The notes: generated by a model not told the origin, from the letters alone. A stretch of 51,247 bases of DNA from Candidatus Magasanikiibacteriota bacterium (GCA_018061685.1 JAGOTR010000003.1:1-51247), one strand, 5' to 3'; counted from the first letter of the stretch, positions 4,492 to 42,743 are shown. A program made the numbers and translations.

Positions 4492-4516
4492 AACATGGAG
4501 CATGGAACATTGAACA
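4492..4516. repeat. Left inverted repeat flanking the four-helix-bundle gene
   Basis: AACATGGAGCATGGAACATTGAACA. Its rc, TGTTCAATGTTCCATGCTCCATG, recurs as two overlapping pieces at 4913-4941. Confidence 0.7.
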
Positions 4517-4523
4517 CAAATAT

Positions 4524-4903
4524 ATGGGAGGGGATTTGCGTATACAAGAGAGGTTTCATGATAAGCTGAAGCGTTTGATTCATGAGTATGTTTTGTTAAC
4601 ATATACACTCACAAAAAAGTATCCCAATGAAGAACGATATGGGCTTATATCTCAAGACCGACGAGCATCTTTATCTATTATGTTGAATTATGTGGAAGGA
4701 TATGGAAGAATGAAAGACGGTGTAAAGAAAAATTTTTATGAAATTTCTTTTGCATCTTTAAAAGAATCCATTTATTGCAAGTATATTGCATTGAATCAAA
4801 ATATATAACAAAAGAAGAGTATATTTCTCTTTTTACTTTAAAACAAAAAATCGGAGCAATGCTTTTTTCTACTATTGCAAGTATAAGTAAAAAAAGTGAG
4901 TAA
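4524..4903 (+). pseudogene. Four-helix-bundle protein (23S rRNA intervening-sequence protein / Avd-like family), split by a frame change near 4800-4808
   Basis: Frame 0 (4524..4808) reads GDLRIQERFHDKLKRLIHEYVLLTYTLTKKYPNEERYGLISQDRRASLSIMLNYVEGYGR...FASLKESIYCKYIALNQNI-stop. The expected family C-terminus continues in the -1 frame from 4808 as TKEEYISLFTLKQKIGAMLFSTIASISKKSE-stop (TAA 4901-4903). The switch falls in the run CAAAATATATAA. Confidence 0.7.
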
Positions 4904-4912
4904 CACAATCGG

Positions 4913-4941
4913 GTTCCATGCTCCATGTTCAATGTTCCATG
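4913..4941. repeat. Right inverted repeat flanking the four-helix-bundle gene
   Basis: GTTCCATGCTCCATG followed by TTCAATGTTCCATG, both complementary to parts of 4492-4516. Confidence 0.7.
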
Positions 4942-7227: not shown

Positions 7228-7249
7228 TCAAGGTATTCTTTTTTAGAAG

Positions 7250-7276
7250 ATCGCTCCTGTACGGGCGATTTTTTTT
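7250..7276 (+). terminator. Weak intrinsic terminator after the GT4 gene
   Basis: ATCGC-TCCTGTACGG-GCGAT followed by T8. The stem is only 5-6 bp. Confidence 0.35.
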
Positions 7277-7291
7277 GTGGGTGGAGGAGGA

Positions 7292-7320
7292 TTGACAAAG
7301 TATGCAAAGTGTGGCAACCT
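7292..7320 (+). promoter_or_regulatory. Candidate sigma-70 promoter of island gene 1
   Basis: Perfect -35 TTGACA (7292-7297), 17-nt spacer, weak -10 CAACCT. Confidence 0.35.
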
Positions 7321-7417
7321 CACCTGTTCTCTGCATGGGTGTGCAGGGGATTTTTTACAATTCAAATTCAGGATACATGATCCTGAGGCGCCCGTGGAAG
7401 GGCAGAAGGAACGTTCC

Positions 7418-9115
7418 ATGAACAGTAATAAGACTCTCGGAGAAAAGTCTCGCACTGCGGCGTGGAGCGTGGCCTATGCTCTTTCGCAGATCGTGCTTTT
7501 CCCATTCTACCTTTTGAGCGAGGTCGTGCACCAGGTGATCGTTGGGGTGTTTCAAACCCTGACGCAGACCTCGGTGTCGGTCTGGCAGCTCAAGGTGCAC
7601 GGCGAAACTCTGTATACCCCGCGTGCTGCCGTGTGGATCGGCAGCGCAGGCCTGCTCCTCTCGGTCATGGCCGTGGTGGAGCTTTTGTGCTGGGGCTGGC
7701 TGTTTCAGCCCATGATGGCGTACGCCGAGCCAATCCTCGGCATGTCGCCCACGGTCATGGCTGCTCTCATGATGGTGAGCTTCACGACGCTCATCATCTT
7801 GGTGGATCGGCTCATCCTCATCGCCGACAGCGTGGCGAAGTCATTTTTGACGGCTGTCGCAAGTGTCGGCGTGCGTGTTGCTATGATCGGCATTACCACC
7901 GCCATCATGGCCGAGCCGGCCACACAGGCTATGTTGGCTGGGCAAATTCAGGAGCATTTTGCCGCACAAGAAAGTGCCGTGCGGCAAGTGGCAATCGCAC
8001 AGGCGACCGCCAAAATTCAAGAAACCTCCGCCGTGGCGATTGACGCTGCGGACAAGCGGACGGTGACTGGAATTGCGGCTGTGCGGGTGAGCGTGAGCAC
8101 TGCTGGCCCCGAGGCTGATAAGGCCTGGGCTCGTTTGTGTATGCGTTGCCTCGATATCGCCAAGTGCGATAGTGCTCTGTACCGCAACGCCAAAGGCGGT
8201 GCATGCCCCGTACCAAGCCGTTCTCGTGGGGCTGCTGCCATTCGGCGTGATCTGAATGAAAAAATTGCAGCAGCCGATGCTGCGATTGCCGCTGCAACGC
8301 AAGGATCCGTTGATGCCCAGCTTGCCCAAGGCCGTGCGGTTGGGGAGGAAAACAACGGTCACGTCCGGTCTCTCGAGGCCAAACGTGATGCCGAGATTGC
8401 GGCTCTCGGTACCCTCACCACGCAAAGCCTGATCGAAAAATACGGCCTTGAACTGGTGGTGCCCCGCAACGACTTTGCGGGGCGAGTGCTGGCGAAGAGC
8501 GCTGTCATTAGCCAAACCCCCGAGTTTGGAGTGCTCAACACTATTGGGCATCTCATTTTCGTTCTGTTTGGCTTTGGTGTGCTCCTCTTCAAGTACGGCC
8601 TCATGCCGGTTGAATCACGCCTGTACTACTCGCTCAAGGCGCAGATGGCCACTGGCAACCCTGACGTGCTATCACTCCGACCCGCCTTGCGGGCTATTGG
8701 CGAACTTCCTCGCGAGGAAACTCACGAGGGGGTGGAAGATGCACTGCATCGCCACCTCGTCAATCTGCTGACACAGCATGCATTGCTGGTCGATCGGTTG
8801 GCCAGCAACTTTGCCCCGCCGCTTGATGATCGCAAGGCACAGGTGGAGCAGCACTGGACGCAGTACCTCTTGCCCCAGCTTCGGCTGTATCAGGGGTACA
8901 TCGCTCAGACTGGTAACAGCCACAGCTGGCCCGACGGGTATGCTGAAGCACTGGGTTTCACCCCAGAGCAAAAGCAAGACCCTTTCATGGGCCAGGCCGA
9001 GCGGTTCACTGTGGAGCAGTCGATTGTGGCAGTGCCTCCTCCACAAGAGGAACGTGCGCCACTGGCACGGGTTGTTGATTTTTTTCGGGGAGGCCGTTCT
9101 TCCCCGCGTTCTTGA
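7418..9115 (+). CDS. Island gene 1: polytopic membrane protein with a central Ala-rich coiled coil (possibly DUF4407-like; unverified)
   Basis: ORF 7277..9115 trimmed to ATG 7418 (MNSNKTLGEK...), preceded by GAAGGA 7 nt upstream. About four N-terminal hydrophobic helices (e.g. AAWSVAYALSQIVLFPFYLL, VWIGSAGLLLSVMAVVELLCWGWLF). An Ala/Gln-rich helical stretch QAMLAGQIQEHFAAQESAVRQVAIAQATAKIQE...AADAAIAAATQ. A further TM helix IGHLIFVLFGFGVLLFKYGLM, then a soluble tail of about 150 aa. Stop is TGA. Confidence 0.7.
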   Translation: MNSNKTLGEKSRTAAWSVAYALSQIVLFPFYLLSEVVHQVIVGVFQTLTQTSVSVWQLKVHGETLYTPRAAVWIGSAGLLLSVMAVVELLCWGWLFQPMMAYAEPILGMSPTVMAALMMVSFTTLIILVDRLILIADSVAKSFLTAVASVGVRVAMIGITTAIMAEPATQAMLAGQIQEHFAAQESAVRQVAIAQATAKIQETSAVAIDAADKRTVTGIAAVRVSVSTAGPEADKAWARLCMRCLDIAKCDSALYRNAKGGACPVPSRSRGAAAIRRDLNEKIAAADAAIAAATQGSVDAQLAQGRAVGEENNGHVRSLEAKRDAEIAALGTLTTQSLIEKYGLELVVPRNDFAGRVLAKSAVISQTPEFGVLNTIGHLIFVLFGFGVLLFKYGLMPVESRLYYSLKAQMATGNPDVLSLRPALRAIGELPREETHEGVEDALHRHLVNLLTQHALLVDRLASNFAPPLDDRKAQVEQHWTQYLLPQLRLYQGYIAQTGNSHSWPDGYAEALGFTPEQKQDPFMGQAERFTVEQSIVAVPPPQEERAPLARVVDFFRGGRSSPRS

Positions 9116-9137
9116 TTCACCCCACCAAAAAATTCTC

Positions 9138-9173
9138 GGGAGTCTCTCACTTTGGCCAAGTGACGAGACTCCC
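9138..9173 (+). terminator. Hairpin without a U-tail after island gene 1
   Basis: GGGAGTCTC-TCAC...GTGA-C-GAGACTCCC: 9 + 4 bp, followed by ACCCCCC rather than a T-run. Confidence 0.45.
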
Positions 9174-9233
9174 ACCCCCCACAAGTCGCGTGATTTTTTT
9201 AAAATCGTGCGTTTTGATAAGGGGGTTTTTTTA

Positions 9234-9263
9234 TTGACAAAAAGTCTATTTTCTGCATTAAAT
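9234..9263 (+). promoter_or_regulatory. Candidate promoter of island gene 2 (TTTTTTTATTGACAAAA module)
   Basis: -35 TTGACA (9234-9239), 18-nt spacer, -10 TTAAAT, with a T7 run immediately upstream. Confidence 0.45.
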
Positions 9264-9303
9264 AGTGCATCGGAATCATCCGATAAAAACATAGGAGTTT
9301 GTC

Positions 9304-9987
9304 ATGGAAATTTTGTGGGTTTCCAAGTCTCATGAGCCACCTCTTCCCATTCAAATTCAGGCGCTTACCACGCTGAAGGGGCAACGACGGGTGCAGATAG
9401 ATCATCGGCACATCGAGAATGCCCAAGTGCTTGCTCGGGAATTTCGTCAAGGGGGGTATGGAGACCTGGTGTGCATAGCTCCTCAATCGGTGATGGCGCG
9501 GATTACACAGGAAGGGGTTCATCCTCTCCGCCCGTGTATGACCTATACCGCCCCCACGATCGGAGGTCGGCGTGCACCGGACTTGCGGCTTCCAAACGGC
9601 AACTTTTGGTTTAGTCACTTTGAGCGAGTAGAAAAAGTTGCGCTCAATCTGGTTGCCGTGCATCCAGCCACTGATGTGCGTCGAGTGTTGCGAATCACGC
9701 GACACCTATTGCAACGACCCGAAGAAGCGGCACTGAAACACGTGTTTGGTCCTCGCGTGGTGATTGAAACGTTGCAACCCACTGAATCATCTATGAGCGC
9801 TGAGTGGGTGATTCAACAGGCAAATCAATACCGTGCCACAGAGGTGGTGTTGGTAGCCCCGTGGGCAGTGTATAAGTTTTTGGCAGAGCGCGGCTGCTTT
9901 GCCTTATATTCACAGTTTGACCCGGCCAATCGGTTTGTGGCTCTGTGGCGCTGTTTGGGCGTTGAGGAACGCGTGACCCGCGTGTAA
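9304..9987 (+). CDS. Island gene 2: unknown protein, paralogue A, internally duplicated alpha/beta unit
   Basis: 227-aa ORF with AGGAG 6 nt upstream of the ATG. Clearly paralogous to 10203..10892 through shared blocks: LW.S, HI.NAQ.LAR.FR..GY.DLVCI.P..VM, PDL, WF, RVLRITRH, AL...FG, IET, VVLVAPW.V.K.LA.RG, LY.Q.D...RFVALWRC.G. Confidence 0.75.
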   Translation: MEILWVSKSHEPPLPIQIQALTTLKGQRRVQIDHRHIENAQVLAREFRQGGYGDLVCIAPQSVMARITQEGVHPLRPCMTYTAPTIGGRRAPDLRLPNGNFWFSHFERVEKVALNLVAVHPATDVRRVLRITRHLLQRPEEAALKHVFGPRVVIETLQPTESSMSAEWVIQQANQYRATEVVLVAPWAVYKFLAERGCFALYSQFDPANRFVALWRCLGVEERVTRV

Positions 9988-10002
9988 CTGGAGGGTGTAT
10001 TG

Positions 10003-10038
10003 TGATGAGGAAAGAGAGCCGTTCAGCTTTCCTCATCA
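10003..10038 (+). terminator. Hairpin without a U-tail after island gene 2
   Basis: TGATGAGGAAAG-12 nt-CTTTCCTCATCA, a perfect 12-bp stem. Confidence 0.45.
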
Positions 10039-10094
10039 CATATACCAAATAATATACCAGCACGTTCGTTCATGCTTTTAGATTTTTTTATACA

Positions 10095-10119
10095 CCTTGC
10101 TTTGCCAAGGCTTTTTTTT
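10095..10119 (+). terminator. Short hairpin plus T8 run just before the next promoter
   Basis: CCTTG-CTTTGC-CAAGG-C-TTTTTTTT. The stem is only 5 bp. Confidence 0.35.
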
Positions 10120-10120
10120 A

Positions 10121-10149
10121 TTGACAAAATATATCTTTTCTTGTATGTA
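10121..10149 (+). promoter_or_regulatory. Candidate promoter of island gene 3 (TTTTTTTTATTGACAAAA module)
   Basis: -35 TTGACA (10121-10126), 17-nt spacer, -10 TATGTA. Confidence 0.4.
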
Positions 10150-10202
10150 TATATCCTTCAGCATTCTTTTGTTTTTTCAAAAAAACCAACGGAGAAGAAT
10201 CC

Positions 10203-10892
10203 ATGAACGTTTTGTGGGGTTCACAACGACGAGGACCTGTGCCTGCTGAAATTGCTGCAATCAAGGCAATCTTTGGTACTGCTGTCCGCATCCATGAACA
10301 GCATATTCCAAACGCGCAAAATTTGGCACGCACATTTCGGCGTGAGGGGTATACTGATCTAGTATGCATTGTGCCCGATGCTGTGATGGGGCATATTTGT
10401 GAACAAGGTCTGCGTCCATTGGTCCCTGTTTTGACTTCTAGTACACAGGGAATTCGACAGCCGGACTTGGTAGATAAACATACGAATATGTGGTTTGACC
10501 GATTTGTTCGTATGAAAGAAGTGTCATTGATACTTCGGCCTGTTGAACGGCGGACCGATGTCACCCGTGTGTTGCGGATTACGCGACATGCTGTATCTCG
10601 AGAAGAACGAGATGCACTGCGGGGACTGTTTGGTGATACCATCCAGATTGAGACGATTTCTGGTGAGGACGCCTTTCTCGATGCTGGATATGTGGTAGCC
10701 AAAACACGGCAGCATGGTGCACAAGATGTTGTCTTGGTTGCACCGTGGGTTGTGTTTAAGAGCTTGGCCACTCGCGGCTATTATCCACTGTATGTGCAGT
10801 GTGATGATACTGGCCGTTTTGTTGCTTTGTGGCGATGTTATGGCTTGAAACAGGTGAGCATTTCGATCACCGACCCGCCGGATACTCGCTAG
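10203..10892 (+). CDS. Island gene 3: unknown protein, paralogue B of 9304..9987
   Basis: 229-aa ORF with GGAG 8 nt upstream of the ATG. Paralogy as described for gene 2. It looks less GC-rich than paralogue A (by eye). Confidence 0.75.
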   Translation: MNVLWGSQRRGPVPAEIAAIKAIFGTAVRIHEQHIPNAQNLARTFRREGYTDLVCIVPDAVMGHICEQGLRPLVPVLTSSTQGIRQPDLVDKHTNMWFDRFVRMKEVSLILRPVERRTDVTRVLRITRHAVSREERDALRGLFGDTIQIETISGEDAFLDAGYVVAKTRQHGAQDVVLVAPWVVFKSLATRGYYPLYVQCDDTGRFVALWRCYGLKQVSISITDPPDTR

Positions 10893-10904
10893 GTAGGAGT
10901 GCTT

Positions 10905-10935
10905 GGTGGAAGAGTTTGCTAAAAACTCTTCCACC
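10905..10935 (+). terminator. Hairpin without a U-tail after island gene 3
   Basis: GGTGGAAGAGTTT-GCTAA-AAACTCTTCCACC, a perfect 13-bp stem. Confidence 0.45.
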
Positions 10936-10970
10936 ACACAAACGTATTGGATTCAATATAACAATAATAG

Positions 10971-10993
10971 AAAGACTTGAAAGGTCTTTTTTT
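10971..10993 (+). terminator. Short hairpin plus T-run just before the next promoter
   Basis: AAAGAC-TTGAAAG-GTCTTT-TTTT. Confidence 0.4.
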
Positions 10994-10996
10994 GTA

Positions 10997-11025
10997 TTGA
11001 CAAAAATAGGTATGTAGTATATTCT
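10997..11025 (+). promoter_or_regulatory. Candidate promoter of island gene 4 (TTTTTTTGTATTGACAAAA module)
   Basis: -35 TTGACA (10997-11002), 17-nt spacer, -10 TATTCT. Confidence 0.45.
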
Positions 11026-11102
11026 CGAGTGCTCTCCACAGGTCTGTGGCAGAGTGAAACTTCAGAATTGGGGTACACACACCCCAAGAAAGGAAAAAAG
11101 CC

Positions 11103-11498
11103 ATGAATTGGCTTACGTATATGTTGTTCGGTTTGTTTCTCCTTGTGGCGGGTTGTGGGGGAACCTCTCTTCGGCCGGAACCACAGTGGGATCGAGGGAT
11201 CGCCTACCACCAGGACGATCGCGCTGCCGGGCAGCGCGAGCACGACATCAGCAACTATCCCGATCAGGCGGGCTTCCAGGCCCGGCTGGCCGCCCATGTG
11301 TCGGCCGTCAACCGGGTCAACGCAGGAGGAGAAGCGCCGCCGTGCTTTGGCAACTGGTGCCAAGGCAAGGCTTACTCTTCCGAGGCACTCCTCACGGGCA
11401 ACCTGATTTACGCGTTTTGTTTGCGAGATCAGCGCTTCCCTGAAGATGTTTGTCGGCGTGAAGCGAAGGGGCGGGCGGACGGCATTGGCGTCAAATAG
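11103..11498 (+). CDS. Island gene 4: small lipoprotein with four additional Cys
   Basis: 131 aa with AAGGAAA upstream of the ATG. Signal peptide MNWLTYMLFGLFLLVAGC has a canonical lipobox (V-A-G-C). Mature part has CFGNWC and FC...VC pairs. Preferred over overlapping frames 11054..11443 and 11143..11406, which lack start signals. Confidence 0.7.
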   Translation: MNWLTYMLFGLFLLVAGCGGTSLRPEPQWDRGIAYHQDDRAAGQREHDISNYPDQAGFQARLAAHVSAVNRVNAGGEAPPCFGNWCQGKAYSSEALLTGNLIYAFCLRDQRFPEDVCRREAKGRADGIGVK

Positions 11499-11543
11499 GT
11501 CGAGGATTTGAGGTAGGATTGCCTCTGCCCTCGTGAACATCGT

Positions 11544-11579
11544 GGTCCCCGCATTTTTGAAATACAAAATGCGGGGGCC
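11544..11579 (+). terminator. Hairpin without a U-tail after island gene 4
   Basis: GGTCCCCGCATTTT-8 nt-AAAATGCGGGGGCC, about 14 bp. Confidence 0.45.
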
Positions 11580-11605
11580 TCAAAACAACCGGTTGAGTAT
11601 AGGTA

Positions 11606-11632
11606 AAAGACTTTTTGTAAGAGTCTTTTTTT
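11606..11632 (+). terminator. Short hairpin plus T-run
   Basis: AAAGACT-TTTTGTAAG-AGTCTTT-TTTT. Confidence 0.45.
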
Positions 11633-11672
11633 ATTCCGTTCATGTTCCCTATTCTAGGGGGAGGGTTTTACC

Positions 11673-11701
11673 TTGACAAATTATTCAAAATCCGCTAGGC
11701 T
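11673..11701 (+). promoter_or_regulatory. Candidate promoter of island gene 5
   Basis: -35 TTGACA (11673-11678), 17-nt spacer, -10 TAGGCT. Confidence 0.35.
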
Positions 11702-11783
11702 GGGCTACTCCTTTGCGTGCAGTACGCAGTAAGGAGAATTCACAACGTGGGTCTGGGAGACCCCAAAAAAAGGAGAGTGCCGT

Positions 11784-12251
11784 ATGGAACGGCTCAGCAT
11801 GTGGTTTTTGTTTCTGTTCGGTTTCTTGACCGTGGGCTGCGGCGCACAGCCGGTCAAGATTGAGTACGTCCCGTGCCAGATGTGCCCGGCGGGCGTGGGA
11901 CTCGAGCGGGCCCATAAGCCTGTGGTCGAGAAGGACCAGTGTCCTCCCGCCGCGCAGAGCGCCTTCGGAACCAAGCAGGGGGCTCTCGCGGGACGGCTCT
12001 CGGAGGCGATCGCCGATCGCCCGGTTAATCGGGAGAACGGACCGACAGCGTGGATGCCTGTGTCCATGGCGCCCACTTCGCATCATGAGGTCCTGGTCAT
12101 GGGCCTCAAGGAGGCGAAGGACTGCCTCAAGAGGCAACGTGAAAAGGGGCGCAAGGTGACCCAGGCGGTGATCGAGTGGTGCAACCGTATCGCCCGACTC
12201 ACCGACGACGGGAAGCGCGTCCGACCGGAGGCCATGACTCCGCCCGACTGA
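11784..12251 (+). CDS. Island gene 5: lipoprotein with several Cys and a basic C-terminal helix
   Basis: 155 aa with AGGAGA 7 nt upstream of the ATG. Signal peptide MERLSMWFLFLFGFLTVGC (lipobox-compatible). Cys residues at VPCQMCP, DQCPP, KDCLK and EWCNR. Stop is TGA. Confidence 0.65.
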   Translation: MERLSMWFLFLFGFLTVGCGAQPVKIEYVPCQMCPAGVGLERAHKPVVEKDQCPPAAQSAFGTKQGALAGRLSEAIADRPVNRENGPTAWMPVSMAPTSHHEVLVMGLKEAKDCLKRQREKGRKVTQAVIEWCNRIARLTDDGKRVRPEAMTPPD

Positions 12252-12270
12252 CGCACCACCCTGAACCTTT

Positions 12271-12316
12271 GAATCACTCCAGATTTTTGCCCTAGGCAAC
12301 TATTCTGGAGTGGTTC
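12271..12316 (+). terminator. Long hairpin after island gene 5
   Basis: CACTCCAGA (12275-12283) pairs with TCTGGAGTG (12304-12312). Outer GAA/TTC extends the stem. The loop is 20 nt. Confidence 0.4.
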
Positions 12317-12347
12317 AACAATATCTTCGAAATTTGTTTGTATGTGT

Positions 12348-12370
12348 ATCTCTTAATAGAGATTTTTTTT
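12348..12370 (+). terminator. Intrinsic terminator closing the island
   Basis: ATCTCT-TAAT-AGAGAT followed by T8. Confidence 0.5.
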
Positions 12371-12413
12371 ATATATACAATTTTTTAATACGCCATGATA
12401 CACTGATGGGTAT

Positions 12414-19512: not shown

Positions 19513-22500
19513 ATGAAAGAAAACGCCACCGCAGTTCGAGTTCCTTCGGGGTACCCAGGCGATACATCTGTATTTGCTATATTTATTTTACTTTTTTTAA
19601 TTGCCATTGTATCGGCTGTAATTTTAAGTGTGCGAGGGTTGCCGGCTGCTTCGGCTCATCCAAATACTCTTGTGGAGTTAGATTATAATATTCAAGGCTC
19701 TGTGCAAGATATGGCAATTTCTGCCGATGGTGAGACGTACTACTTAAGTGGTAATTTTTCTTATGTTGGTGCCACAACCGGGCCTGGTGTGATTGTGAAT
19801 GCTACCACAGGCGCATTAGCGGAATACCATAAACTTGGGTCAGGATCTGTTTCGGCTCGTGTGGTTATCTCTGATGGAAGCGGCGGATGGTATGTGGGTG
19901 GTACGTTCACAACAGTGGGAAATGTTTCTCAAGATAGACTTGTTCATATTACATCTGACGGGTCTATTAATACTTCTTTTGATCCAACATTTGACCAGTT
20001 TGGAAGCATCTATTCATTAGCGCTTGATAGTGCTGCGGGAAGGCTATATGTGGGTGGATCATTTACCGAGGTGAATGGCCAAGCTCGTGATAGTTTGGTT
20101 GCACTGCAAACGGCAAACGGTGATCTTGTTGATGCGTTTCAAATTGATGTAAATAATTTTGGTACGGTGTATGACATGGAAATCAATAGCGGCACCCTCT
20201 ATCTTGCGGGTAATTTTAGTGCATTAGGTGATCTTGCTACACGGTATTCTTACGGAGCTATTGATGTTTCTTCGAGTACCACAAGTACGGTTACGAGTTT
20301 TGGAGATTCTTTTGGATTGGGTTTGTATGGTACTGCCTATGCATTGGAAATCTATGATGGATATGTCTATTTGGGTGGATTTTTTAATGGAATTGGCACG
20401 GGATTTGATATTAATCATGTTGCTCGATTTGATATTGTTGAGGGAGATATTGACTCTAATTGGAATATCGGACCAGACAGTAGTGTGAATGATATTGAAA
20501 TAAGTGATACGGGTATTGTATATGTCGGTGGTGGCTTTACTGGAATTGGCGGTGATAGTAGTCAAGGATATTTAGCTGCCGTAGATGTTGCCACAGAATT
20601 ATCAACGGGGTGGAGTCCGGTATTGAATGGGTCTGTTGAAGATATTCATATTGGAAGTGACACTATTTATTTTGCAGGATCTTTTGATACGGTAAACAGT
20701 TCCACTCGGTATTTAGGGGCGGCTGTGGACGCTGCGACGGGGTTAGTGAATACTGATCTTACCTTTACTCCTAATTCAGGGAGCACAGGATACGCTATTA
20801 TGGAACAATCGGGTGAAGTGTATTTTCTTGGGAGTTTTGATTCTATTGGAGGTGCTCGCTGTCGTGGGTTGGTTGGTATTACCGTTGATACTGGATTACC
20901 CACATCATTTTGTCATTCGTTTACCAATATGGGGTCAACCGCTGGGCCACGTACGTTGTTGTTAGAAGGGAACAAGTTGTATGTTGGAGGGGCTTTTTCG
21001 AGTATTAATGATGGAAGTTCTTCTCCAAATTTTGCTGCTGTATTTAATGTCGATACGAATGAATTATTAGATATTGATTTTGGTTTATCTATTGGTTTTG
21101 GTATGGGGGATCACGGTGTCTATAAATTTCTTATTGATGGTGATGATATCTATATTGGAGGGAAATATACGGCAATAGATCTCTCGAGTGATTATGCTGT
21201 TCTTGGTAAATTTAATAAAACAACAGGAGCGCATGATACTTCGTTGAGTACTGGTTTATTATATCCAAGTTGTTGTGGTGGAAATGACGGAGAAGTACGT
21301 GATATGGTATTAATTGATGATATTTTGTATGTTGGAGGATATTTTACTACTGCTACTGGTAGTGTTTCTCGGTCATATTTAAGTGCTTTTAATACGACGG
21401 ATGGTACATTAACTGCGTGGGCTCCAGAAGCAAACGGGCGGGTAACGCAAATGGAATATAATGGCACGGATACCCTGTATATTTCCGGCGATTTTGGTAC
21501 GATAAATGGTGATACAAGAAATTATTTAGCAGCAGTAGATGTAACAACGGGGTCGACAACTGACTGGGCACCTACTGTGGCAGCTGCACCGAGTGTGTTA
21601 TTAATTGAAGATGGCTATTTGTATGTGGGCGGCGGATTTTCAGAAATAAATGCGACGGCAAGAGAAATGCTCGCTAGCTTTCAATTAAGCGATGAAACAC
21701 TTACGAATTGGAATCCTAATTTAGATGATAGTATTTCAGCGAGTCAATCGAGTGTTCATACATTAAAAAAAGATAATTCTACCGTATTTGTAGGGGGAAA
21801 TTTTCTTACTGCAGGATCAGATAGAATATTTAACGTAGGTAAATTTGGACCACTGAAAGTACAATTTTCGTCCAGTACTTGGACTCAAAGTGAAACAGTG
21901 ACAAATGTGCCATTTACTATTGCTATTTCAAGTGGAAATACGTCATCACTCCCTATTGGTGTGGTGCTGAATGTCACCGGTGGAAGTGCCACCTATGGTG
22001 TCGATTATACCGTTTCCACCGGAACGCTTACTATTGCCGCAGGAGAAACGTCTACATCTTCTGCCATTACCATCGTCAATGATGATACCTTTGAAGCAGA
22101 CGAAACCATTGTACTTACCCTCGTATCAACCGATATTGCTGAATTTGATTTGAATACTACCTATACCTATACCATTGTGAATGATGAGGTTGTAACACCA
22201 GGTGTCATGATTACCGAATCTGATGCAGGAACAGCGGTGACTGAGGGTGGTGCAACCGATAGCTACACCGTGGTATTAAATTCCCAGCCAGATTCTGATG
22301 TGACGGTTGCAATTAGTGAGTCGGCGGATCTCACTATTTCTACGAGTAGTATTGTGTTTACTGCTGCAAACTGGGATACGGAACGCACCGTGACCGTTAC
22401 TGCGGTAAACGATGATATTGATGAAGATGTCGAAATAGTCACCACGACATTTAGTGCCACTTCTCTTGATATGGATTATGAGGCTATTGATATAGACCCA

Positions 22501-24468
22501 ATTGACGTAACCATAACCGATAATGATACTGCGGGTATGACACTCACTCAATCAGATGCAACGACGGTATTGAGTGAAGCTGTTGATGGAAGTAGTGATA
22601 GTTACACCATTGTGCTCGATAGTGAACCAACGGCAGACGTGACTGTTGCAATTACTTCCGATAGTACAGAGTTGACACTTTCAACAAGTACGATTGTATT
22701 TACGAGTGCTAATTGGGATACAGCCATAACGATTACGGCAACCATTGTTGATGATAGTAATGATGAAGATGCAACACATACAAGTGTTATTTCGCATGCC
22801 GTAACAAGTGGTGACAGTGATTATAATGAATTTGCTTTGGGCACCGTGAGTGTGAGTATTACCGATGATGATACTGCCTCTATTACTCTTACCGAAGCAG
22901 GTGGGTCAAGTACCGTGACCGAAGATGGAGCTACTGATACCTATACTTTGGTACTCGGAAGTTCTCCTTCTTCTTCCGTTACTATTGCACTGGCGTTGGA
23001 TAATGATGATGTGACCATTTCTACCAGTTCAATTGTATTTACCAGTGCTAATTGGAGTAGTGCTGTTACCGTCACAATAAGTGCGGTAAATGATGCAACT
23101 GTTGAAGGCGACCATACGTCTGAAATTAGTCATACCGTTACCTCTGACGATGCCTTGTATGATGCATTTGATATTGATGACGTGGTTGTCACCATTACGG
23201 ATAATGATGTTGCGGCAAGTGAAGATGATGATACACCGGTAGATACTGGTGGGGCTGCATCACCAGTTGCTTCTCCTTCTCAAGTACTCAATACACTCAC
23301 AACCGCTCCGGAATTTTCTCAAAGTATTCAAACCACCTTTGCCGTAACACCTGGGAATCCAACACAAATTAACGTGGGGGGCGCTTCTCACACCTTAAGT
23401 GTTGAACTTGCATCAACTGACGAAGTGACTATTATTATTCAGTCTGATCCGGTTTCTGTGCAATTGTGGAAAGGTGAAAGTAAAGACGTTGATATTACGG
23501 GTGATTATGTGCCAGATGTTTCAGTAAAATATAAAGGAGTATTAAATGGCAAACCTCAAATTGCTGTCACCGACTTAGTGCGTCAAAGAAAAGTATTTGT
23601 GATTAATAACGATGCACTCCAAACAGAAGCACGCGAAGTAACGGTTCAACTATTAGCAGATGGTATTCGATCATTAGTATTGTCGGACGAACCAAATTTA
23701 TCAAAGAAAAGTTTTGAATCAAAAACGACGTCAACACTCACCTGGCAATTACCCGAAGGAAATGGAAAGAAAACTATTTACGGAAGATTTATTCTTACAA
23801 ATGGAAGCATTATTGCCTTTGAAGACAGTATTAATTTGGTGCCAAAAGGAACAAAAGTGGAAACCTGCCCGCTTCGCTCTGGGGCAGCGTATAAAGTAAG
23901 AAATAGTGGGGTGGTATGGTTTGTAACAGGGTCATGCACCAAACGACCGTTTAGTAGCGAAGATATTTTCTTTTCCTATTTTGATTCCTTTAGAGGAGTT
24001 GAAACCATACCACAGGCAACATTACAAGCTGTCCCTGAAGATGCATTTGGTGCAATGCCTATGGGTGTGCGCCTTCGGTTTGCTGATGGAAGTTTAGTAA
24101 AGCTAGCCAATGATCCAACCGTGTATTTGGTGCTGCAAGGTGAGGTGCGTCCTATCCCGAACGAACAAACATTTATTTCCCTTGGCTTTCAATGGAATTG
24201 GATAGAAACGATTACAAAAGAAACGTTTGCTCGTTATAGAATGGGGGCGCCACTCACCAGTGCGAGACTCCCATATACGCTTATAAGCTATCCACGATCG
24301 TCCCAAATATATCGATTAGAGCCTGATGCGGCAATGCCCGGAAAATTGGTAAAAAGACGCATTGCAACGACCGATGCGTTGAATCGATTAGGGTATCGAC
24401 GAGATCGTGTGGTGGTTATTCCTGCCACAGAAGTGTATGCCGATGGGTCTCCAATTGGTGTGAATTAA
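19513..24468 (+). CDS. Giant (1651 aa) membrane-anchored/secreted surface protein: beta-propeller repeats plus Calx-beta-like repeats plus a C-terminal repeat domain
   Basis: N-terminal hydrophobic anchor VFAIFILLFLIAIVSAVILSV. About 15 repeats of the Y(V/L)(G/A)GxF(T/S)x(V/I)(N/G)...(L/A)A(A/V)(V/F)D..TG type, typical of delta-60/beta-propeller repeats. A classic Calx-beta unit, GGSATYGVDYTVSTGTLTIAAGETSTSSAITIVNDDTFEADETIVLTLV. Confidence 0.9.
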   Translation: MKENATAVRVPSGYPGDTSVFAIFILLFLIAIVSAVILSVRGLPAASAHPNTLVELDYNIQGSVQDMAISADGETYYLSGNFSYVGATTGPGVIVNATTGALAEYHKLGSGSVSARVVISDGSGGWYVGGTFTTVGNVSQDRLVHITSDGSINTSFDPTFDQFGSIYSLALDSAAGRLYVGGSFTEVNGQARDSLVALQTANGDLVDAFQIDVNNFGTVYDMEINSGTLYLAGNFSALGDLATRYSYGAIDVSSSTTSTVTSFGDSFGLGLYGTAYALEIYDGYVYLGGFFNGIGTGFDINHVARFDIVEGDIDSNWNIGPDSSVNDIEISDTGIVYVGGGFTGIGGDSSQGYLAAVDVATELSTGWSPVLNGSVEDIHIGSDTIYFAGSFDTVNSSTRYLGAAVDAATGLVNTDLTFTPNSGSTGYAIMEQSGEVYFLGSFDSIGGARCRGLVGITVDTGLPTSFCHSFTNMGSTAGPRTLLLEGNKLYVGGAFSSINDGSSSPNFAAVFNVDTNELLDIDFGLSIGFGMGDHGVYKFLIDGDDIYIGGKYTAIDLSSDYAVLGKFNKTTGAHDTSLSTGLLYPSCCGGNDGEVRDMVLIDDILYVGGYFTTATGSVSRSYLSAFNTTDGTLTAWAPEANGRVTQMEYNGTDTLYISGDFGTINGDTRNYLAAVDVTTGSTTDWAPTVAAAPSVLLIEDGYLYVGGGFSEINATAREMLASFQLSDETLTNWNPNLDDSISASQSSVHTLKKDNSTVFVGGNFLTAGSDRIFNVGKFGPLKVQFSSSTWTQSETVTNVPFTIAISSGNTSSLPIGVVLNVTGGSATYGVDYTVSTGTLTIAAGETSTSSAITIVNDDTFEADETIVLTLVSTDIAEFDLNTTYTYTIVNDEVVTPGVMITESDAGTAVTEGGATDSYTVVLNSQPDSDVTVAISESADLTISTSSIVFTAANWDTERTVTVTAVNDDIDEDVEIVTTTFSATSLDMDYEAIDIDPIDVTITDNDTAGMTLTQSDATTVLSEAVDGSSDSYTIVLDSEPTADVTVAITSDSTELTLSTSTIVFTSANWDTAITITATIVDDSNDEDATHTSVISHAVTSGDSDYNEFALGTVSVSITDDDTASITLTEAGGSSTVTEDGATDTYTLVLGSSPSSSVTIALALDNDDVTISTSSIVFTSANWSSAVTVTISAVNDATVEGDHTSEISHTVTSDDALYDAFDIDDVVVTITDNDVAASEDDDTPVDTGGAASPVASPSQVLNTLTTAPEFSQSIQTTFAVTPGNPTQINVGGASHTLSVELASTDEVTIIIQSDPVSVQLWKGESKDVDITGDYVPDVSVKYKGVLNGKPQIAVTDLVRQRKVFVINNDALQTEAREVTVQLLADGIRSLVLSDEPNLSKKSFESKTTSTLTWQLPEGNGKKTIYGRFILTNGSIIAFEDSINLVPKGTKVETCPLRSGAAYKVRNSGVVWFVTGSCTKRPFSSEDIFFSYFDSFRGVETIPQATLQAVPEDAFGAMPMGVRLRFADGSLVKLANDPTVYLVLQGEVRPIPNEQTFISLGFQWNWIETITKETFARYRMGAPLTSARLPYTLISYPRSSQIYRLEPDAAMPGKLVKRRIATTDALNRLGYRRDRVVVIPATEVYADGSPIGVN
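22189..23209 (+). repeat. Three tandem in-frame repeats of about 340 nt (about 113 aa), Calx-beta-like adhesin modules, inside the 19513 CDS
   Basis: Units start VVTPGVMITESDAGTAVTEGGATDSYTVVLNSQP, TAGMTLTQSDATTVLSEAVDGSSDSYTIVLDSEP and TASITLTEAGGSSTVTEDGATDTYTLVLGSSP. Each unit ends ...V(T/S)ITD(N/D)D. Confidence 0.85.
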
Positions 24469-27769: not shown

Positions 27770-30700
27770 ATGCTGTACACTTTGTTTCGGAAAAGCCTGT
27801 TTGTCTTTATGGCCGTAATGACGGGTTTTATGCCTGTGGCACCTGTGCTTGCCACCACGGCTCTTGAAAGCAGCTCGGAGAGTACTGAGGTACAATCGCT
27901 TACCTTCACCCCACAAGAAACAATCCCGCCCATAGAAACCGTGACGCTCGAGCCGAGCGGTTTAGAAGAAGACACTATCGAGATACCCTCTCCTTTGACT
28001 ATTGTGCCTGAAGAGATATTGACACCATCATCGCCTGAAGAGCTGACAATAGTATTAGACATACCAACCAGCACAACACCTGATGTGGATACTCTTGTGC
28101 TGCAAGAACAAACAGAGACTTCTTTTTTTGCGACCATACAAGAAACAGTGAGTGATATTGTAACAACCGTAGAAGAAGCGGTAGAAGAGACTATCGACGA
28201 GGCGGTTCAATTTTTTTCATACGCATGGTATAGCACTGTAAATTCTTTGAGTGGATTACCTCCAGAACTCCCAGAAGAAGCATTCAACGTGGTTGACTCG
28301 GTCACCGATGTGGCCTATTTGCCAGATGGAAAGCATGTATATCGTGAATTTTTGTCTCCTCGATTTTTGTACCATGAGAATGGACAGTGGAAAGCACGCC
28401 CTGCTGATTGGCATGCGTTTTCCGAAATAACAGAATCACAACTAGCACCAAATACTCAAGGCTATTCATACCAAGCCCCAGGAGAAACAGCATTGACTAT
28501 TGGTGCAGGCACGCTCTCTGTCGGCACACAGGATATTTCGCCAGGTCAAGCTAATTTTTCTCAATATGAAAAAAATGGGTATACCGTGAGTGCCTATGAA
28601 GGAGTGTACCCAGGCATTGATGTGATATTTCAAGATTCAAGCGTGCTTCGACAACGAAGTATTGTGATTCACGAAACGGCAGGGCGATCGTTTACCAACG
28701 ATGTGACATTTTGGGAAGAGTATGTGATTCCGGCAGGAACAGTGGTTCGCACGAGTAGTGGTGAAGCCATTAGTGACAGTCGTGATATCACTGGCGATCA
28801 TGTGAGCTTTGAGTTACCAAGTGGATTTGTGTTTGGTGTGAGTGACGCGATTGTGTTTGATGCGTCGGCACAAACACCAGACGAGATCGATATTTCACCG
28901 TCCCTTGAAACCGTTTCTTCTCGTATTGAAATTGATTCGGCAAGCGGTATCGCACGAATTGGTCTTACTATTCCAGCGACGTATTTGCAAGACGCGGTAC
29001 GAAAATATCCGGTGACGATTGATCCGAATTATTATTTTTGTCAAACGGCTACGCCACATTCAGTAGAACAATTGCCAGGTGTGCAATGTTCTGGTGGAAT
29101 TACTGATCTTTATTTACGATATTTGGCGAGTCGAGAAACCGGCACGGGGGATTTATTTTTGGGGTATTATAGTGGAGATCCTGCGGGTCCAGCAACACGC
29201 CAGCCTGTGGTAAAATTTTCTTTGGCAGCTATTCCTGCTGGTCATCAAATAACGAGTGCGTCATTACAACTATATAAGAGTAGAAATGGGCTTGGCAATT
29301 TTAATGGTGATATCAATACTATTGCTCGAAGAATTACGGTCGATTGGAATATCAACAATGTGACCTATCAACTCATCCGCCCAGGATTGGTGAATTTGGG
29401 TCAGAGTGTTGTGCAAACAGGAGTCAACGGGTGGTATGTGTGGTCTGTCACTGCTGCTGCACAAAGTTGGTATGCTACACCGCTTCAAAATTATGGTCTA
29501 TTAGTTGAACCAACTCCTGCTTGGAATGCTGGTGCTGTCCCCGCATGGCCAAATAGGCTTGCTATTTTTAGCTCCTCACGAAATGGTGATACAAATGGAC
29601 CATACTTGTTGGTGCAGACACAAGTGGCACAGCCGGATTTACGAATACAAAATAATGCTATTGATGATACTACTGTCACGCCAGGTCAAGTAGTGAATCT
29701 TTCTCTTGACGTCATAAATAGTGGCAACGCTGCGACAAATCAGCAAGGGAGTGTGTATTATTATTTCAAGAAAGATAGTCGTCTCTATGAGGAACAGTAT
29801 CGTGTTGGGTCGGACACCTATCCGGGACTCGCTGTGAATACATTTTCGTCAGAGACATTTCAATTTACCATTCCTGCAGGGGCAGAACCCGGAACATATT
29901 ATTTGTATTCTTTTGTGGATCCTACGGGATTATTTGTTGAAAGTAATGAAAATAATAACACGGCGTTTCATACGATTACTGTGTCAAGTCCCAATTTACC
30001 CAACTTGGTGCCTGAACAAAATGCCGTCGATGACAACACCGTATTTACCGGTCAACAAGTGACGGCAAGTACACGAGTATTTAATCGTGGTGCTGCGGGT
30101 GCAGGGAATACGTCTGTCTTGCGATATTATTTATCTACCAATCAAACATACGACGCAAATGATACCTATCTCAATCAACAAGACACTGTTGATAATTTAG
30201 CTGTAGGTGCAAGTAATTTTGAGTCGGCACTTGTGACTATTCCAAATGTTGCGGCAGGAACATATTACATTTTGTTCCGTGCGGATTATGATAATCAAAT
30301 TCCAGAATCAAATGAAAATGATAATGTAGGGTTTGTGCAAGTAACCGTCTCTATCCCTATTGATCCGCTTGAGCCAAATAATACGTCAGGGACAGCAACA
30401 AATTTGGGTGCACTGGTAAATTACAATAATAATCAAACATTGCTCACTGCTGGCGATCAAGATTGGTTTGTATTTCGTTATAATAATCAAAATTATTATG
30501 TGAAAGTTGCTGGGCTTAATGCAAACACTGCTGGTGATTACAATGTTTCTTTTTCTTTGGTAGGGAATAGACTCACTGCTGAGACGCTTCGACGAACAGG
30601 TGGCACAGACACGACCCTTACTCTCTATGGTCCTGATTTATTACAGTTAGACTACAATGACGATGTTGATAATACACTCTTCTCTCGTATTGTGTACGAT

Positions 30701-33700
30701 TTACCACTCGGCGGATATTGTGGTGGACAGTGCGGTGGTGGTGGCAATCCTCCACCGAGCGAAAATTTACCTGACCAAGATAATGATACATTTGCCGACG
30801 TAGAAGAAGCCTATGGTGGAACGCCAATTCAAAACCCAAATCAAAGGGCAAGTCTCTATAACATTGGGAATCCCGTGCTCTACTCAAAAGTTGCCGACAA
30901 AACAGCAAACAATTATGGCGCCGACCCAGTCAACTTGCGTACTGGTTCATTTGAATTTATACAACAAGATTTTGTACTTTCTGGCCGAGGTGTCCCAATT
31001 GAATTTACGCGTACCTACAACAGTTTAGTAACAGACAAAGATTCTCGCCTTGGGAATGGCTGGGATTTTTCACAAAACTTTTTTTACTACCAAGATCCTG
31101 ACACGGGCAATGTGCAAATATATTTTGGTGGGTCACGTGTCTCATCATTTAGTTCAAACGATGGGGGACAAACATTTGTTGCCGAAAAAGGAAACTTCGA
31201 TACATTGTTTTGGGAGAATAATGCAATTGTCTACCGCACACTCGAAGGCATTCGGTATGAATTTACCAATCGCTTAACGAGTCAATTAGGTATTTTGGAA
31301 CGCATTCGAGATACCAATGGCAATGTGACCGAATTTACCTACATGGTTCGCCGTGATGTGCCACTTATTACACAAATTCGTGATGCATCTGGTCGTGTGG
31401 TTGAATTTACGTATGGCGCAGAAGATGCTGCAAACTGGCAACGTATTGAGTCACTTCGCGAACGAGCCAACCAAAATCAAGCAGAACAACGTGTAATTCT
31501 TTTTACATACAATGGTTCTGGCAATTTAATTCGAGTGCGTGACAACAAATCATTTGAAGGCGTTACTGAAACGAGTGACAGACAATATGCGTATGATGCC
31601 AATAATCGATTAACACAATATACCGATCCACGGGGAACTATTTTATACAACGAATACGATGCAAATGGGCGAGTCATTCGTCAACGAGAATATAATCCAC
31701 GTGTTGACGCTGCTGGCAGTTCTCGCTTGGTATGGGAATTATCATACGCCGGCGGAAGAGGCGACGCACCGGGCAGTGTTGCCTGTACGACCGTTACCTA
31801 TCACCGAAGTGCTGCGAGTAGCTATACCGAAGTCAGTTGTTTTAATGCCGACGGCTTAAAAGTATTTTTTCAAGATGGAGCAGGCGCAAGTGAAAAGTGG
31901 ACATACGACAATAATGGTATGGCTCAAACATACCAAGATAAAAATGGAAATACTACCAGCTATACTCATGACGCTCGTCGTCGTTTGACGCTCGAGGTGT
32001 TGCCAGAAACGGCATGGTACACCGAAGTGGCCTATGCGTATGAAAATAATTTTAATCGCCTTGTTCGTGCAACAGAGCGATATCGCGCTGCCAACGCTCC
32101 CGAAGATCCACTCCAACTCCGTGAAAAACAATTTTTGTATGACAATGAGCATGGGAATCTTACCGAAGCACGAGATTATTTGGGTCGAGCAGAATTTTTT
32201 GCCTACGACCAATATGGTAATGTGATTCAGTTTACCAACAAAAATGGACATATAACATCCTACGTCTACGACGCACAAGGCAACTATCGCATTCGAGAGT
32301 CCATACAAGCACAAGTGTTAGATGGCGAGGATATGAATGTGGTGAAGAGCTATCAATATGATCCGTATGGCAATGTGACGGTGTATACCGACCCTGCCGG
32401 TGGATTATGGCAATATGCGTATGACACCCGAAATAATCTTCGTCGCACCGTTGATCCCTTGGGTGCTGTTCGTCAGTACCGCTATGACGCCGAAGACAAC
32501 AAAATACAAGAAATAAACGAGCGTGGCTTTATTACCAATTATGTGTACGATCAAGATATTGAAGCATCTCTTTTGTCTATTGAACAAGTCGGCGCAAATG
32601 GTGACGCATCGCGCATCACTCGTTTTGAACGAGATTATTTAGGTACACTGGTCAGAGAAATTGATCCACGTGGCAACGCAACCGTGTATACACATAACGG
32701 AGCCAATTTGTTGACGCAAAAACAAATGCCACAAGATACGATTGTGTATGCATATGATGGTGTGGGCAATGTAATCCGCGAAACAAATAGTTTGGGTCAA
32801 CAAGTTGCGTACCAATATGATGCCCGCAATAAACGAACACAATCACAAACGCAATCAGACGCTGGGTTAGTGACGGTGACAACGCAATATGATGCATTTT
32901 CTCGACCTATCTTGGTGACAGATCCAAATAATAGCGTTCATGGCTACACCTATGACGCTATGGATCGAGTGGTAAGTGAGGTGGACGCATTGGGTGGTGT
33001 GACAAGTTATACCTATGACGCCATTGGTAATAAACGAAGTGTGTTATTGCCTCGTGCACAAGCAGACCTTGCACTTCGTAACGCACAAGGAAATTCTGTG
33101 ACGTATGAATATGACAGTCTTCGTCGATTAGTTCGAGAAACCAATGCAGACAATAAACAAACGTTGTATTTTTACGATACCAGAGGAAATTTGATTCGTA
33201 CAATTGACAGACAAAATGCAAATGGGACAGACAATACGCATGTAACAACGTACACGTATGACGCGGTAAACAGAAATATAACCAAAACCATGCCCGAAGG
33301 CGGGGTGACACAAATGGAATATGACGGAGTAGGCAACATGACACGCATGACCGACGCCATGAATCGTGCAACGGTGTATGGCTACGACACGTTTAATGCA
33401 CAAAAAACAGTGACCGATGCCGCAGGAAATCAAACCGCATTTACCTTCGACACGGCTGGCAATGTCACACGAACAACGTATCCAGATAATACGAGTGTGT
33501 CTGTGGTGTATGACACTGCGAACAGACCAATACAGGTGACCGATGCCGACAATAATACCGAAGTCACTACGTATGATTCTTCAAGCAATGTTGTTGCACT
33601 TCAAAATAGACGGGGAGAAATAACAACGTTTGTCTATGATGCATCAAATCGCCTTATTCGTGAAACCAATCCACAAAATACTGCGACACTCTATACCTAT

Positions 33701-36880: not shown

Positions 36881-36897
36881 TTTTTCTTTAGAGCTGT

Positions 36898-37125
36898 ATG
36901 TATATAGAAGCAATAATTATCATGATACTATTCGCCATTATTCCTTTTTCAAAAAAGATAATGTCTATCATAGATAAACCTTTTCAGATTATGTGGTATT
37001 TATCACCAACGAACGCCCCCCTTGAAAGAATGTTTGGTAAACATATTCGAATGTGGGTTTTGAAAGGGATATTTTGGGGAGTAAGTTTCATTATATTATT
37101 GTTTGTATTAGGTATTTTAAGATGA
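36898..37125 (+). CDS. Small two-helix membrane protein (75 aa), unknown
   Basis: MYIEAIIIMILFAIIPF...GIFWGVSFIILLFVLGIL. Lies in a very AT-rich stretch continuous with the toxin/immunity cassette. Confidence 0.45.
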   Translation: MYIEAIIIMILFAIIPFSKKIMSIIDKPFQIMWYLSPTNAPLERMFGKHIRMWVLKGIFWGVSFIILLFVLGILR

Positions 37126-37138
37126 TCTTTCGTTTTGT

Positions 37139-37387
37139 ATGAAATCAATAGTTATCTTAGTCCTCATCACTATGCTGTTTATACTAATTGCACAATCAAA
37201 CAAAATTATTCATTCTCTGAAAAAGATTTTTGGAATGATATTGGGTCTCTTTGCATTTAGTGCAAGTGTTACTCTCAAAGAAGTCATGGATGAAAAATCT
37301 ACTACCAAAATAATGAAAGCAGTGTTGTATACATTTGCAGTATTATCGGCGATAATTGCGATTATACTTATTATGACAGGGGTATAA
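37139..37387 (+). CDS. Small three-helix membrane protein (82 aa), unknown
   Basis: MKSIVILVLITMLFILIA...GMILGLFAFSASV...AVLYTFAVLSAIIAIILIMTG. Confidence 0.45.
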   Translation: MKSIVILVLITMLFILIAQSNKIIHSLKKIFGMILGLFAFSASVTLKEVMDEKSTTKIMKAVLYTFAVLSAIIAIILIMTGV

Positions 37388-37428
37388 CGTACACATTATT
37401 TATCAATTTTTTAAAAATAATAAGTAGT

Positions 37429-42695: not shown

Positions 42696-42743
42696 TACTA
42701 GCCATTTTTTTCTTTTGCTATGTTTCACTCGCCGTTTCGGAAT

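Follow-up and report, generated by a model that had tools for sequence, protein, structure and literature searches.

Prophage morons are genes that carry their own promoter and terminator and show a deviant guanine plus cytosine (GC) content, with examples in HK97 and HK022 (PMC3594210). Here we compare these and other described systems with a five-gene island (genes g1 to g5, all in the same strand) located at positions 7228–12413 of a 51,247-nucleotide stretch of DNA from Candidatus Magasanikiibacteriota bacterium (GCA_018061685.1, JAGOTR010000003.1:1–51247), hereafter the window, where it separates two genes for GT4 glycosyltransferases (GT4b and GT4c) in a surface-glycan cluster. We propose, with a probability of roughly 0.6, that this island is an old and fixed array of five moron-like accessory cassettes. 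Like prophage morons, the island genes look like independent units, differ in GC content from their neighbors and are absent from a related genome; likewise, their products include a membrane protein and lipoproteins, which are typical moron cargo. Unlike morons, the five units are outside any recognizable prophage and lie in a row within a chromosomal cluster of housekeeping and glycan genes; additionally, the island cassettes are GC-richer than their host instead of AT-richer, and are known here from sequence motifs.

Classical genomic islands share with this locus an atypical composition, presence or absence among relatives, an envelope-directed cargo and the location in a surface-polysaccharide locus, but here there is no adjacent tRNA, integrase or flanking direct repeats, and the element is small (5.2 kb). 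Integron arrays are also reminiscent of the island, with short, unrelated open reading frames (ORFs) of odd composition and without known relatives in the same strand and an inverted repeat behind each of them; however, an integron origin was ruled out upon inspection of the hairpins, which lack the R″/R′ cores of attC sites (RYYYAAC/GTTRRRY), and the window contains no intI gene, nor was any integrase ORF seen. Moreover, integron cassettes are normally promoterless, whereas each of the island cassettes has a predicted promoter. Lastly, CobS/CobT-like MoxR-VWA modules of phages adjoin relatives of g2 and g3 in three contigs (L085, L090, and L093), whereas no MoxR or VWA gene occurs in or beside the island, where g2 and g3 are detached from such a module.

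The GC content of the island is 0.531, compared to 0.417 for the remainder of the window, and is more than 10 standard deviations away from the other 5.2-kb segments (mean 0.417, standard deviation 0.010, maximum 0.436). In a 1-kb sliding analysis, GC rises from around 0.42 to 0.55–0.60 across 7.0–9.0 kb, stays at 0.44–0.56 up to 12.5 kb and then drops to around 0.40, and the tetranucleotide distance reaches its maximum (0.41–0.42) at the island, versus 0.12–0.22 outside it. A single further GC peak in the window, at 2.0–3.0 kb, is due to the gene for RNase P RNA. The foreign GC signal of the island is confined to its ORFs (GC of 0.49–0.64, versus 0.36–0.45 for the flanking genes), the GC of five island spacers being host-like (0.34–0.47). 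At third codon positions (GC3), the values are 0.65 for g1, 0.54 for g2, 0.42 for g3, 0.67 for g4, and 0.80 for g5, compared to 0.24–0.46 in host genes. The amino acid content of the island proteins also deviates, with a fraction of Gly, Ala, Arg, and Pro of 0.30–0.37 (0.13–0.28 in host proteins) and a paucity of Phe, Tyr, Met, Ile, Asn, and Lys.

The island genes likewise differ in their ribosome-binding sites. All five are preceded by a Shine-Dalgarno (SD) motif (AGGAG, GGAG, or AAGGA) situated 6–10 nt upstream of the start codon, versus one out of 21 host genes (Fisher p = 9e-5); with so few SD motifs, host translation apparently starts without SD pairing. The anti-SD motif has been reported as missing from some lineages of the candidate phyla radiation (CPR) (PMC9297842). 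A scan of GTDB genomes with GT4b retrieved its best matches from Peribacteria/Peregrinibacteria, with 33–36% identity and different gene neighborhoods. The host is an AT-rich bacterium without apparent use of SD sites, and we infer that it is probably of CPR type. An initial annotation of the window had already pointed to the composition jump and, as a speculation, to a high-GC donor that uses SD sites; the jump and the presence of SD sites in the island are confirmed by these comparisons.

Comparison with related genomes showed that the island is a true insertion that has been vertically inherited since the split from a sister lineage. In a related genome retrieved with a YidC scan (L094; 87, 78, and 67% amino acid identity to the window for GroEL, GT4a, and YidC, respectively), synteny with the window is complete from the orf177/bactofilin gene through GroEL, and the site of the island is empty: the stop codon of GT4b (7634) and the start of GT4c (7647) are 12 bp apart, in a region of even GC (0.39–0.46). 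This empty junction, together with the foreign composition, indicates that the island was gained on the branch shared by the window and a sister genome, L004, of about 90–92% nucleotide identity. L004 contains the island at the same site and with the same junctions, and identity to the window is unbroken over both island edges; four of the five genes are kept, g2 being absent, and g4 is longer. The synonymous divergence (dS) between the window and L004 is 0.15–0.28 for island genes and 0.14–0.30 for most flanking genes; the gain was therefore not recent. Additionally, three further public assemblies contain identical DNA (100%), and one of them, an independent assembly of 15 kb obtained with a different assembler (L001), crosses both island junctions with 100% identity. 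The horizontal acquisition postulated in the initial annotation is thus supported by the 12-bp GT4b-GT4c junction of L094, by GC, GC3 and amino acid content and by SD use, and its observation that the edges lack an integrase, transposase, flanking tRNA or direct repeats holds as well. No integrase or transposase was found in the island flanks and no mobility-related family matched the island proteins; neither direct nor inverted repeats border the island, and the sole tRNA nearby is a tRNA-Leu at 1945, at 5.2 kb from it. No phage genes were seen within the 51-kb window, and the island is flanked by GT4 genes, YidC, GroES/EL, and RNase P RNA. Searches of Rfam at the gathering threshold and with permissive E-values did not reveal any RNA gene in the GC-rich blocks.

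The island is organized as follows, in window coordinates:

7228–7417, plus strand, left spacer (GC 0.468), with a predicted hairpin and T-run after GT4b at about 7249–7277
7292–7299, plus strand, predicted -35 box TTGACAAA of the left spacer, followed by a long 5′ leader that contains a hairpin (7326–7351)
7385–7388 (GAGG) and 7406–7410 (AAGGA), plus strand, SD sites of the left spacer
7418–9115, plus strand, g1, membrane protein of 565 amino acids (aa), or 573 aa if the start is the GTG at 7394
9116–9303, plus strand, g1-g2 spacer (GC 0.41), with a hairpin at 9138–9173 and a predicted terminator hairpin plus T-run at 9187–9232
9234–9239 (TTGACA) and 9293–9297 (SD, AGGAG), plus strand, signals of the g1-g2 spacer
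9304–9987, plus strand, g2, 227 aa, paralogue A, predicted to be cytoplasmic and with two alpha/beta domains, absent from L004
9988–10202, plus strand, g2-g3 spacer (GC 0.344), with a perfect 14-bp hairpin at 10001–10040 and a predicted terminator at 10095–10119
10121–10126 (TTGACA) and 10191–10194 (SD, GGAG), plus strand, signals of the g2-g3 spacer
10203–10892, plus strand, g3, 229 aa, paralogue B, with an L004 orthologue of around 85% aa identity
10893–11102, plus strand, g3-g4 spacer, 98% identical to L004, with a perfect 14-bp hairpin at 10904–10936 and a predicted terminator at about 10969–10995
10997–11002 (TTGACA), 11020–11025 (TATTCT) and 11090–11094 (SD, AAGGA), plus strand, signals of the g3-g4 spacer
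11103–11498, plus strand, g4, predicted lipoprotein of 131 aa with lipobox LVAGC (...FLLVAGC) and one Cys-containing repeat
11499–11783, plus strand, g4-g5 spacer, with a hairpin at about 11541–11579 and a predicted terminator at about 11607–11634
11673–11678 (TTGACA) and 11771–11775 (SD, AGGAG), plus strand, signals of the g4-g5 spacer
11784–12251, plus strand, g5, predicted lipoprotein of 155 aa with lipobox LTVGC (...GFLTVGC)
12252–12413, plus strand, right spacer, with a 15-bp hairpin at 12269–12318 and a hairpin plus T-run at about 12349–12370
12353–12381, plus strand, promoter-like site before GT4c, within the right spacer

The spacers show a common order, with the stop codon followed by a GC-rich hairpin, a second hairpin plus T-run abutting TTGACAAA, a leader and the SD site. 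There are five TTGACA hexamers in the plus strand of the island, one per spacer and each upstream of a gene, and five of the nine TTGACAAA sites in the 51-kb window fall in island spacers. With its own predicted promoter and terminator for each gene, the island would therefore comprise five self-contained expression cassettes and not an operon. The host groES and RNase P RNA genes also have canonical TTGACA/TATAAT promoters and, therefore, the host RNA polymerase should be able to read those of the island. Several of the spacers are 98–100% identical to L004, above the conservation of the ORFs, and the right-spacer region 12236–12385 shows 100% identity.

The five same-strand ORFs and their sizes, as initially annotated, were borne out. 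The pattern of substitutions by codon position and the ratio of nonsynonymous to synonymous substitutions (dN/dS) support that g1, g3, and g4 are coding, with weaker support for g5. The dN/dS is below 1 in all five genes, with the strongest constraint in the core of g1 and the weakest in g5; the island is maintained by purifying selection, weakly so for g5. As had been anticipated, none of the proteins could be assigned to a characterized family, with nothing above threshold for any of them in Pfam, NCBIfam, PHROGs, or PADLOC, and no match at E ≤ 1 to the PADLOC-DB v2 defense models. For g1, g4, and g5 we found no relatives outside the sister lineage, in searches that were less sensitive than those done for g2 and g3: word-indexed searches with g1 and g4 recovered nothing beyond the queries or the sister lineage, PDB sequence searches with the three proteins gave nothing, and tblastn of the three produced no match in 2.08 Mb of retrieved loci from which the sister copies were excluded.

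The product of g1 is all-helical, with hydrophobic segments at residues ~15–45, 69–98, 106–140, 139–165, and 370–399; segments 4 and 5 are separated by an Ala-rich helical region of around 200 residues with a patch of four Cys, and the protein ends in a soluble tail of around 165 residues. Its only relatives found were the sister orthologues, with 87% identity. The overall dN/dS of g1 is 0.31, although that of its core (residues 57–400) is 0.10, as low as in the housekeeping neighbors, and its termini are fast-evolving. The center of the gene (window 7975–8274) shows 98% nucleotide identity to L004, with a nearly invariant protein, and alignment is essentially impossible over the last 40 codons; the 3′ end of g1 has been remodeled at the site where g2 is present or absent. 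The protein gave a weak alignment to Pfam DUF4407 (PF14362; 11.6 bits, E 0.17), below the gathering threshold of 31.3 bits and spanning positions 34–238 of the 297 of the profile, which does not establish membership. DUF4407 is an uncharacterized membrane/coiled-coil family without known function, for which, as for bpMoxR, the literature offered nothing useful; the overall layout of its members resembles that of g1, with transmembrane helices at the N-terminus, an extended helical stretch and one more transmembrane helix towards the end.

The proteins encoded by g4 and g5 each have a hydrophobic N-terminus followed by a lipobox Cys, in agreement with the two lipoproteins initially annotated; with the five hydrophobic segments of g1, this would place three of the products in the cell envelope, as was also proposed then. 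Both lipoboxes are retained in the L004 orthologues, although the signal peptide of g5 has diverged. The repeat of g4 (PxCFxNWCxG...LLxGNIxY) occurs once in the window and has a second copy in the g4 of L004, whose product is of 205 aa because of a 219-bp indel (L004 6407–6625 versus window 11498/11499). The dN/dS is 0.21 for g4 and 0.72 for g5, the least constrained gene of the island. The leaders of both genes (11060–11102 and 11735–11783) contain a short GC hairpin, GGGGTACACACACCCC and GGGTCTGGGAGACCC, respectively, followed directly by CCCCAA(A/G)AAAGGA and then the start codon, a shared layout that may represent a common element of translational control.

The products of g2 and g3 are 45% identical (E 2e-64), which supports the paralogy proposed in the initial annotation. 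The internal duplication that it also proposed was not detected by direct BLASTP of the halves (E 3.5), but it receives indirect support from single-domain relatives, which align to either half, and from the AlphaFold model, in which the secondary structure is repeated. A full HMMER search with a g2 plus g3 profile among 1.84 billion representatives (E ≤ 1e-3) retrieved 182 relatives, in forms of around 220 aa (two domains) and 120 aa (one domain); no Pfam model matched any of ten family members. Conversely, a word-indexed search with g2 returned only itself or the sister lineage, the g2/g3 alignment found no relatives in one metagenome scan, and a PDB sequence search with the profile gave nothing. 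The AlphaFold model of g2, from 39 sequences, has a mean predicted local distance difference test (pLDDT) score of 96.1 and a predicted template-modeling (pTM) score of 0.87, and consists of two copies of a beta-alpha-beta-alpha-beta-alpha-beta unit, each with a long beta-hairpin behind. Foldseek comparisons of this model did not identify anything convincing in PDB (best E 2.4e-3, TM 0.26) or BFVD (E 4.9e-4, TM 0.28), with no TM above 0.30, and a CobK/SAVED assignment was dropped because the best PDB match, CobK, was at noise level by its TM value. A reading of the "SRH" motif as that of a histidine phosphatase or a B12-binding protein was also abandoned, since the family as a whole does not conserve it. 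Near invariance is limited to four positions (W5, L21, P60, and P186), all of which look structural, and this speaks against a conserved catalytic site. The g2 and g3 proteins would each consist of two Rossmann-like alpha/beta domains; since their putative active-site residues are poorly conserved, they more likely serve in binding, either of a ligand or of a partner protein, than in catalysis. The dN/dS of g3, from the window and L004, is 0.52.

The gene contexts of the g2/g3 relatives are diverse. In contig L085, a bpMoxR AAA gene is followed by a VWA gene and a g2/g3 homologue, and two unknown genes plus an AAA_14/DUF4143 gene separate the latter from another homologue. L092 has the same AAA_14 gene with a homologue, and in L093 a homologue accompanies a VWA gene whose product shares 70% identity with its L085 counterpart. 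L090 is clearly phage-like, with an integrase, many small ORFs, a CobS-like AAA, a VWA, a one-domain homologue and Sak4, as well as genes for a processivity factor, a primase and thymidylate synthase; similarly, the relative in L177 is near a phage-like run of small ORFs beside an SNF2 helicase gene. In L086 and L087, the homologue adjoins housekeeping genes. The MoxR-type AAA (bpMoxR/CobS-like) and VWA genes lie immediately upstream of family genes in L085 (174–2760), L093 (3–1373), and L090 (4273–7186); this neighborhood in three unrelated contigs suggests a functional link for the g2/g3 family, which is not present in the window. The nearest relatives are from metagenomic contigs of around 60–66% GC with phage-type MoxR/VWA genes, contexts that fit a GC-rich, SD-using source, possibly a mobile element; the actinobacterium put forward as donor or host in the initial annotation is a speculative candidate.

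A pattern comparable to that of the island is seen in L087, of around 37% GC, where two short ORFs of 67–75% GC (552–941 and 1195–1458) precede the g2/g3 homologue, each with a TTGACA-17-TATAAT promoter, an SD site and a hairpin, and separated by AT-rich spacers. The coding status of these ORFs, and of the stretch 1–1000 of L086, is doubtful because the products look low-complexity; no Rfam family matched. In L093, the block with the VWA gene and the homologue has a GC of 0.56–0.62, beside genes of 0.44–0.50. The patterns in L087 and L093 thus indicate that the g2/g3 family occurs repeatedly in GC-rich islands of contigs with lower GC.

If the island is an array of moron-like cassettes, each unit would be formed by a sigma-70 -35 box (TTGACAAA), an SD site, a GC-rich ORF and hairpin/T-run terminators, and the ORFs would derive from a GC-rich gene pool that uses SD sites. 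For g2 and g3 this pool would most likely be that of phages or mobile elements, given that relatives of both occur in phage-like replication regions by MoxR/VWA (CobS/CobT-like) pairs. The five genes would then provide separate accessory functions, three of them (g1, g4, and g5) at the envelope, where, by analogy with morons, they would most plausibly alter the cell surface, for instance by blocking the entry of phages or mediating contact with partner cells. Several observations weigh against this proposal. There is no phage structural, integrase or mobility gene in or near the island, so the analogy with morons is one of architecture; tblastn with g1, g3, and one single-domain member gave no match in the INPHARED phages or the PLSDB plasmids, and scans of IMG/VR with the g2/g3 alignment and with g1 retrieved no relatives. 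Likewise, AT-rich spacers (0.34–0.47) beside ORFs with a GC3 of 0.65–0.80 are unlike a single GC-rich donor block. Finally, the promoters, terminators and lipoprotein processing are predictions from sequence, the roles of the five proteins are those that we infer by analogy, and g5 is weakly constrained.

The initial annotation favored a single, coherent and undescribed envelope system, in which g1 would be a scaffold that works with two outer lipoproteins and two cytoplasmic partners. The common strand, tight grouping and foreign composition of the genes agree with this idea, as do the retention of four of the five at the same site in L004, with dN/dS below 1, and their complementary compartments (membrane, outer-face lipoproteins, cytoplasm). 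Nevertheless, we consider it unlikely: the genes form separate predicted promoter-SD-ORF-terminator units, L004 lacks g2 and has a different, longer g4, and PADLOC found no defense system. Moreover, the five genes were not found to co-occur elsewhere: no relatives of g1, g4, or g5 appeared in the recovered contexts of g2/g3 relatives, and the searches made with these three found no homologues beyond the sister lineage.

It is improbable that the island is an accessory part of a Wzy-type glycan locus, with g1 acting as a co-polymerase or chain-length regulator and the lipoproteins in export or anchoring. The island indeed lies among GT4 genes, in a cluster that includes a phosphoglycosyl transferase (Bac_transf) and a Wzy_C protein, and the helical region of around 200 residues of g1 is flanked by hydrophobic segments; but g1 did not match Wzz/GNVR or any other polysaccharide-family profile even at E ≤ 1, and L094 possesses the whole cluster without the island. 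The AlphaFold prediction for g1, from three near-identical sequences, reached a pLDDT of 36 and was unusable for fold comparison.

We give very little credence to the genes being native and lineage-specific, with a composition dictated by amino acid content or local mutation bias and a later loss in L094. Although the divergence of the island matches that of its flanks, and it has host-like spacers and canonical promoters similar to those of groES and the RNase P RNA gene, the GC3 of 0.65–0.80 and the SD sites in all five genes cannot be explained by amino acid content, and unrelated contigs, GC-rich and phage-like, contain g2/g3 relatives. An assembly chimera of DNA from two organisms, which the abrupt composition change at both edges might evoke, can be dismissed, because the three other assemblies are 100% identical, L001 spanning both junctions, and L004 (~91% nucleotide identity) has the same junctions with divergence continuous over them.

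Other differences among these genomes affect the same region. In L094, a predicted lipoprotein of 392 aa is encoded at 8762–9940 between GT4c and yidC, two genes that are 86 bp apart in the window. A gene of the 23S_rRNA_IVP family (94 aa, 4524–4808, GC 0.316), at 4495–4920 of the window, is absent from L004, and is the second presence/absence difference with this genome inside the same glycan cluster. Lineage-specific envelope genes thus seem to accumulate at the intergenic sites of the cluster.

Elsewhere in the window, a class A RNase P RNA is encoded at 2170–2910 in the minus strand, near the tRNA-Leu(GAG) at 1945–2028; it is 741 nt long, versus 367 positions in the model, and therefore has large insertions. 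A beta-propeller/Calx-beta protein of 1651 aa is encoded at 19513–24468. The 27770–37500 region codes for a 2748-aa RHS-repeat protein, followed directly by a 287-aa leucine-rich-repeat protein, with a GC of around 0.31 at 36.0–37.5 kb; this pair looks like the tip of a polymorphic toxin and its immunity region. Finally, a frame in the plus strand (42702–51245) that has no stop in over 2,840 codons, and is still open at the end of the window, encodes a third giant protein, probably of the surface.

Features of this type are already known, and the noteworthy parts are the g2/g3 family and the recurrent pattern of GC-rich cassettes. The former is a small family with a confident fold but without a Pfam model or a convincing structural match; the latter is seen in four possibly independent cases (the window and L004, L086/L087, L093, and perhaps L085/L092). 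The foreign origin of the island is marked in four independent ways (GC, GC3, amino acid content and ribosome-binding sites) and L094 preserves the empty site; the island constitutes a datable fixation of foreign genes, kept by selection, in a reduced and probably CPR-type genome. It is a tentative and rather doubtful prospect that the cassettes traveling with the g2/g3 family reflect an unrecognized gene flow into AT-rich, SD-poor ultra-small genomes, from either a phage/mobile pool or the GC-rich host of the symbiont; if this were true, g1, g4, and g5 would be a new module for host interaction or phage exclusion. The identity of the donor would bear on whether ultra-small symbionts acquire genes from their hosts or from phages.

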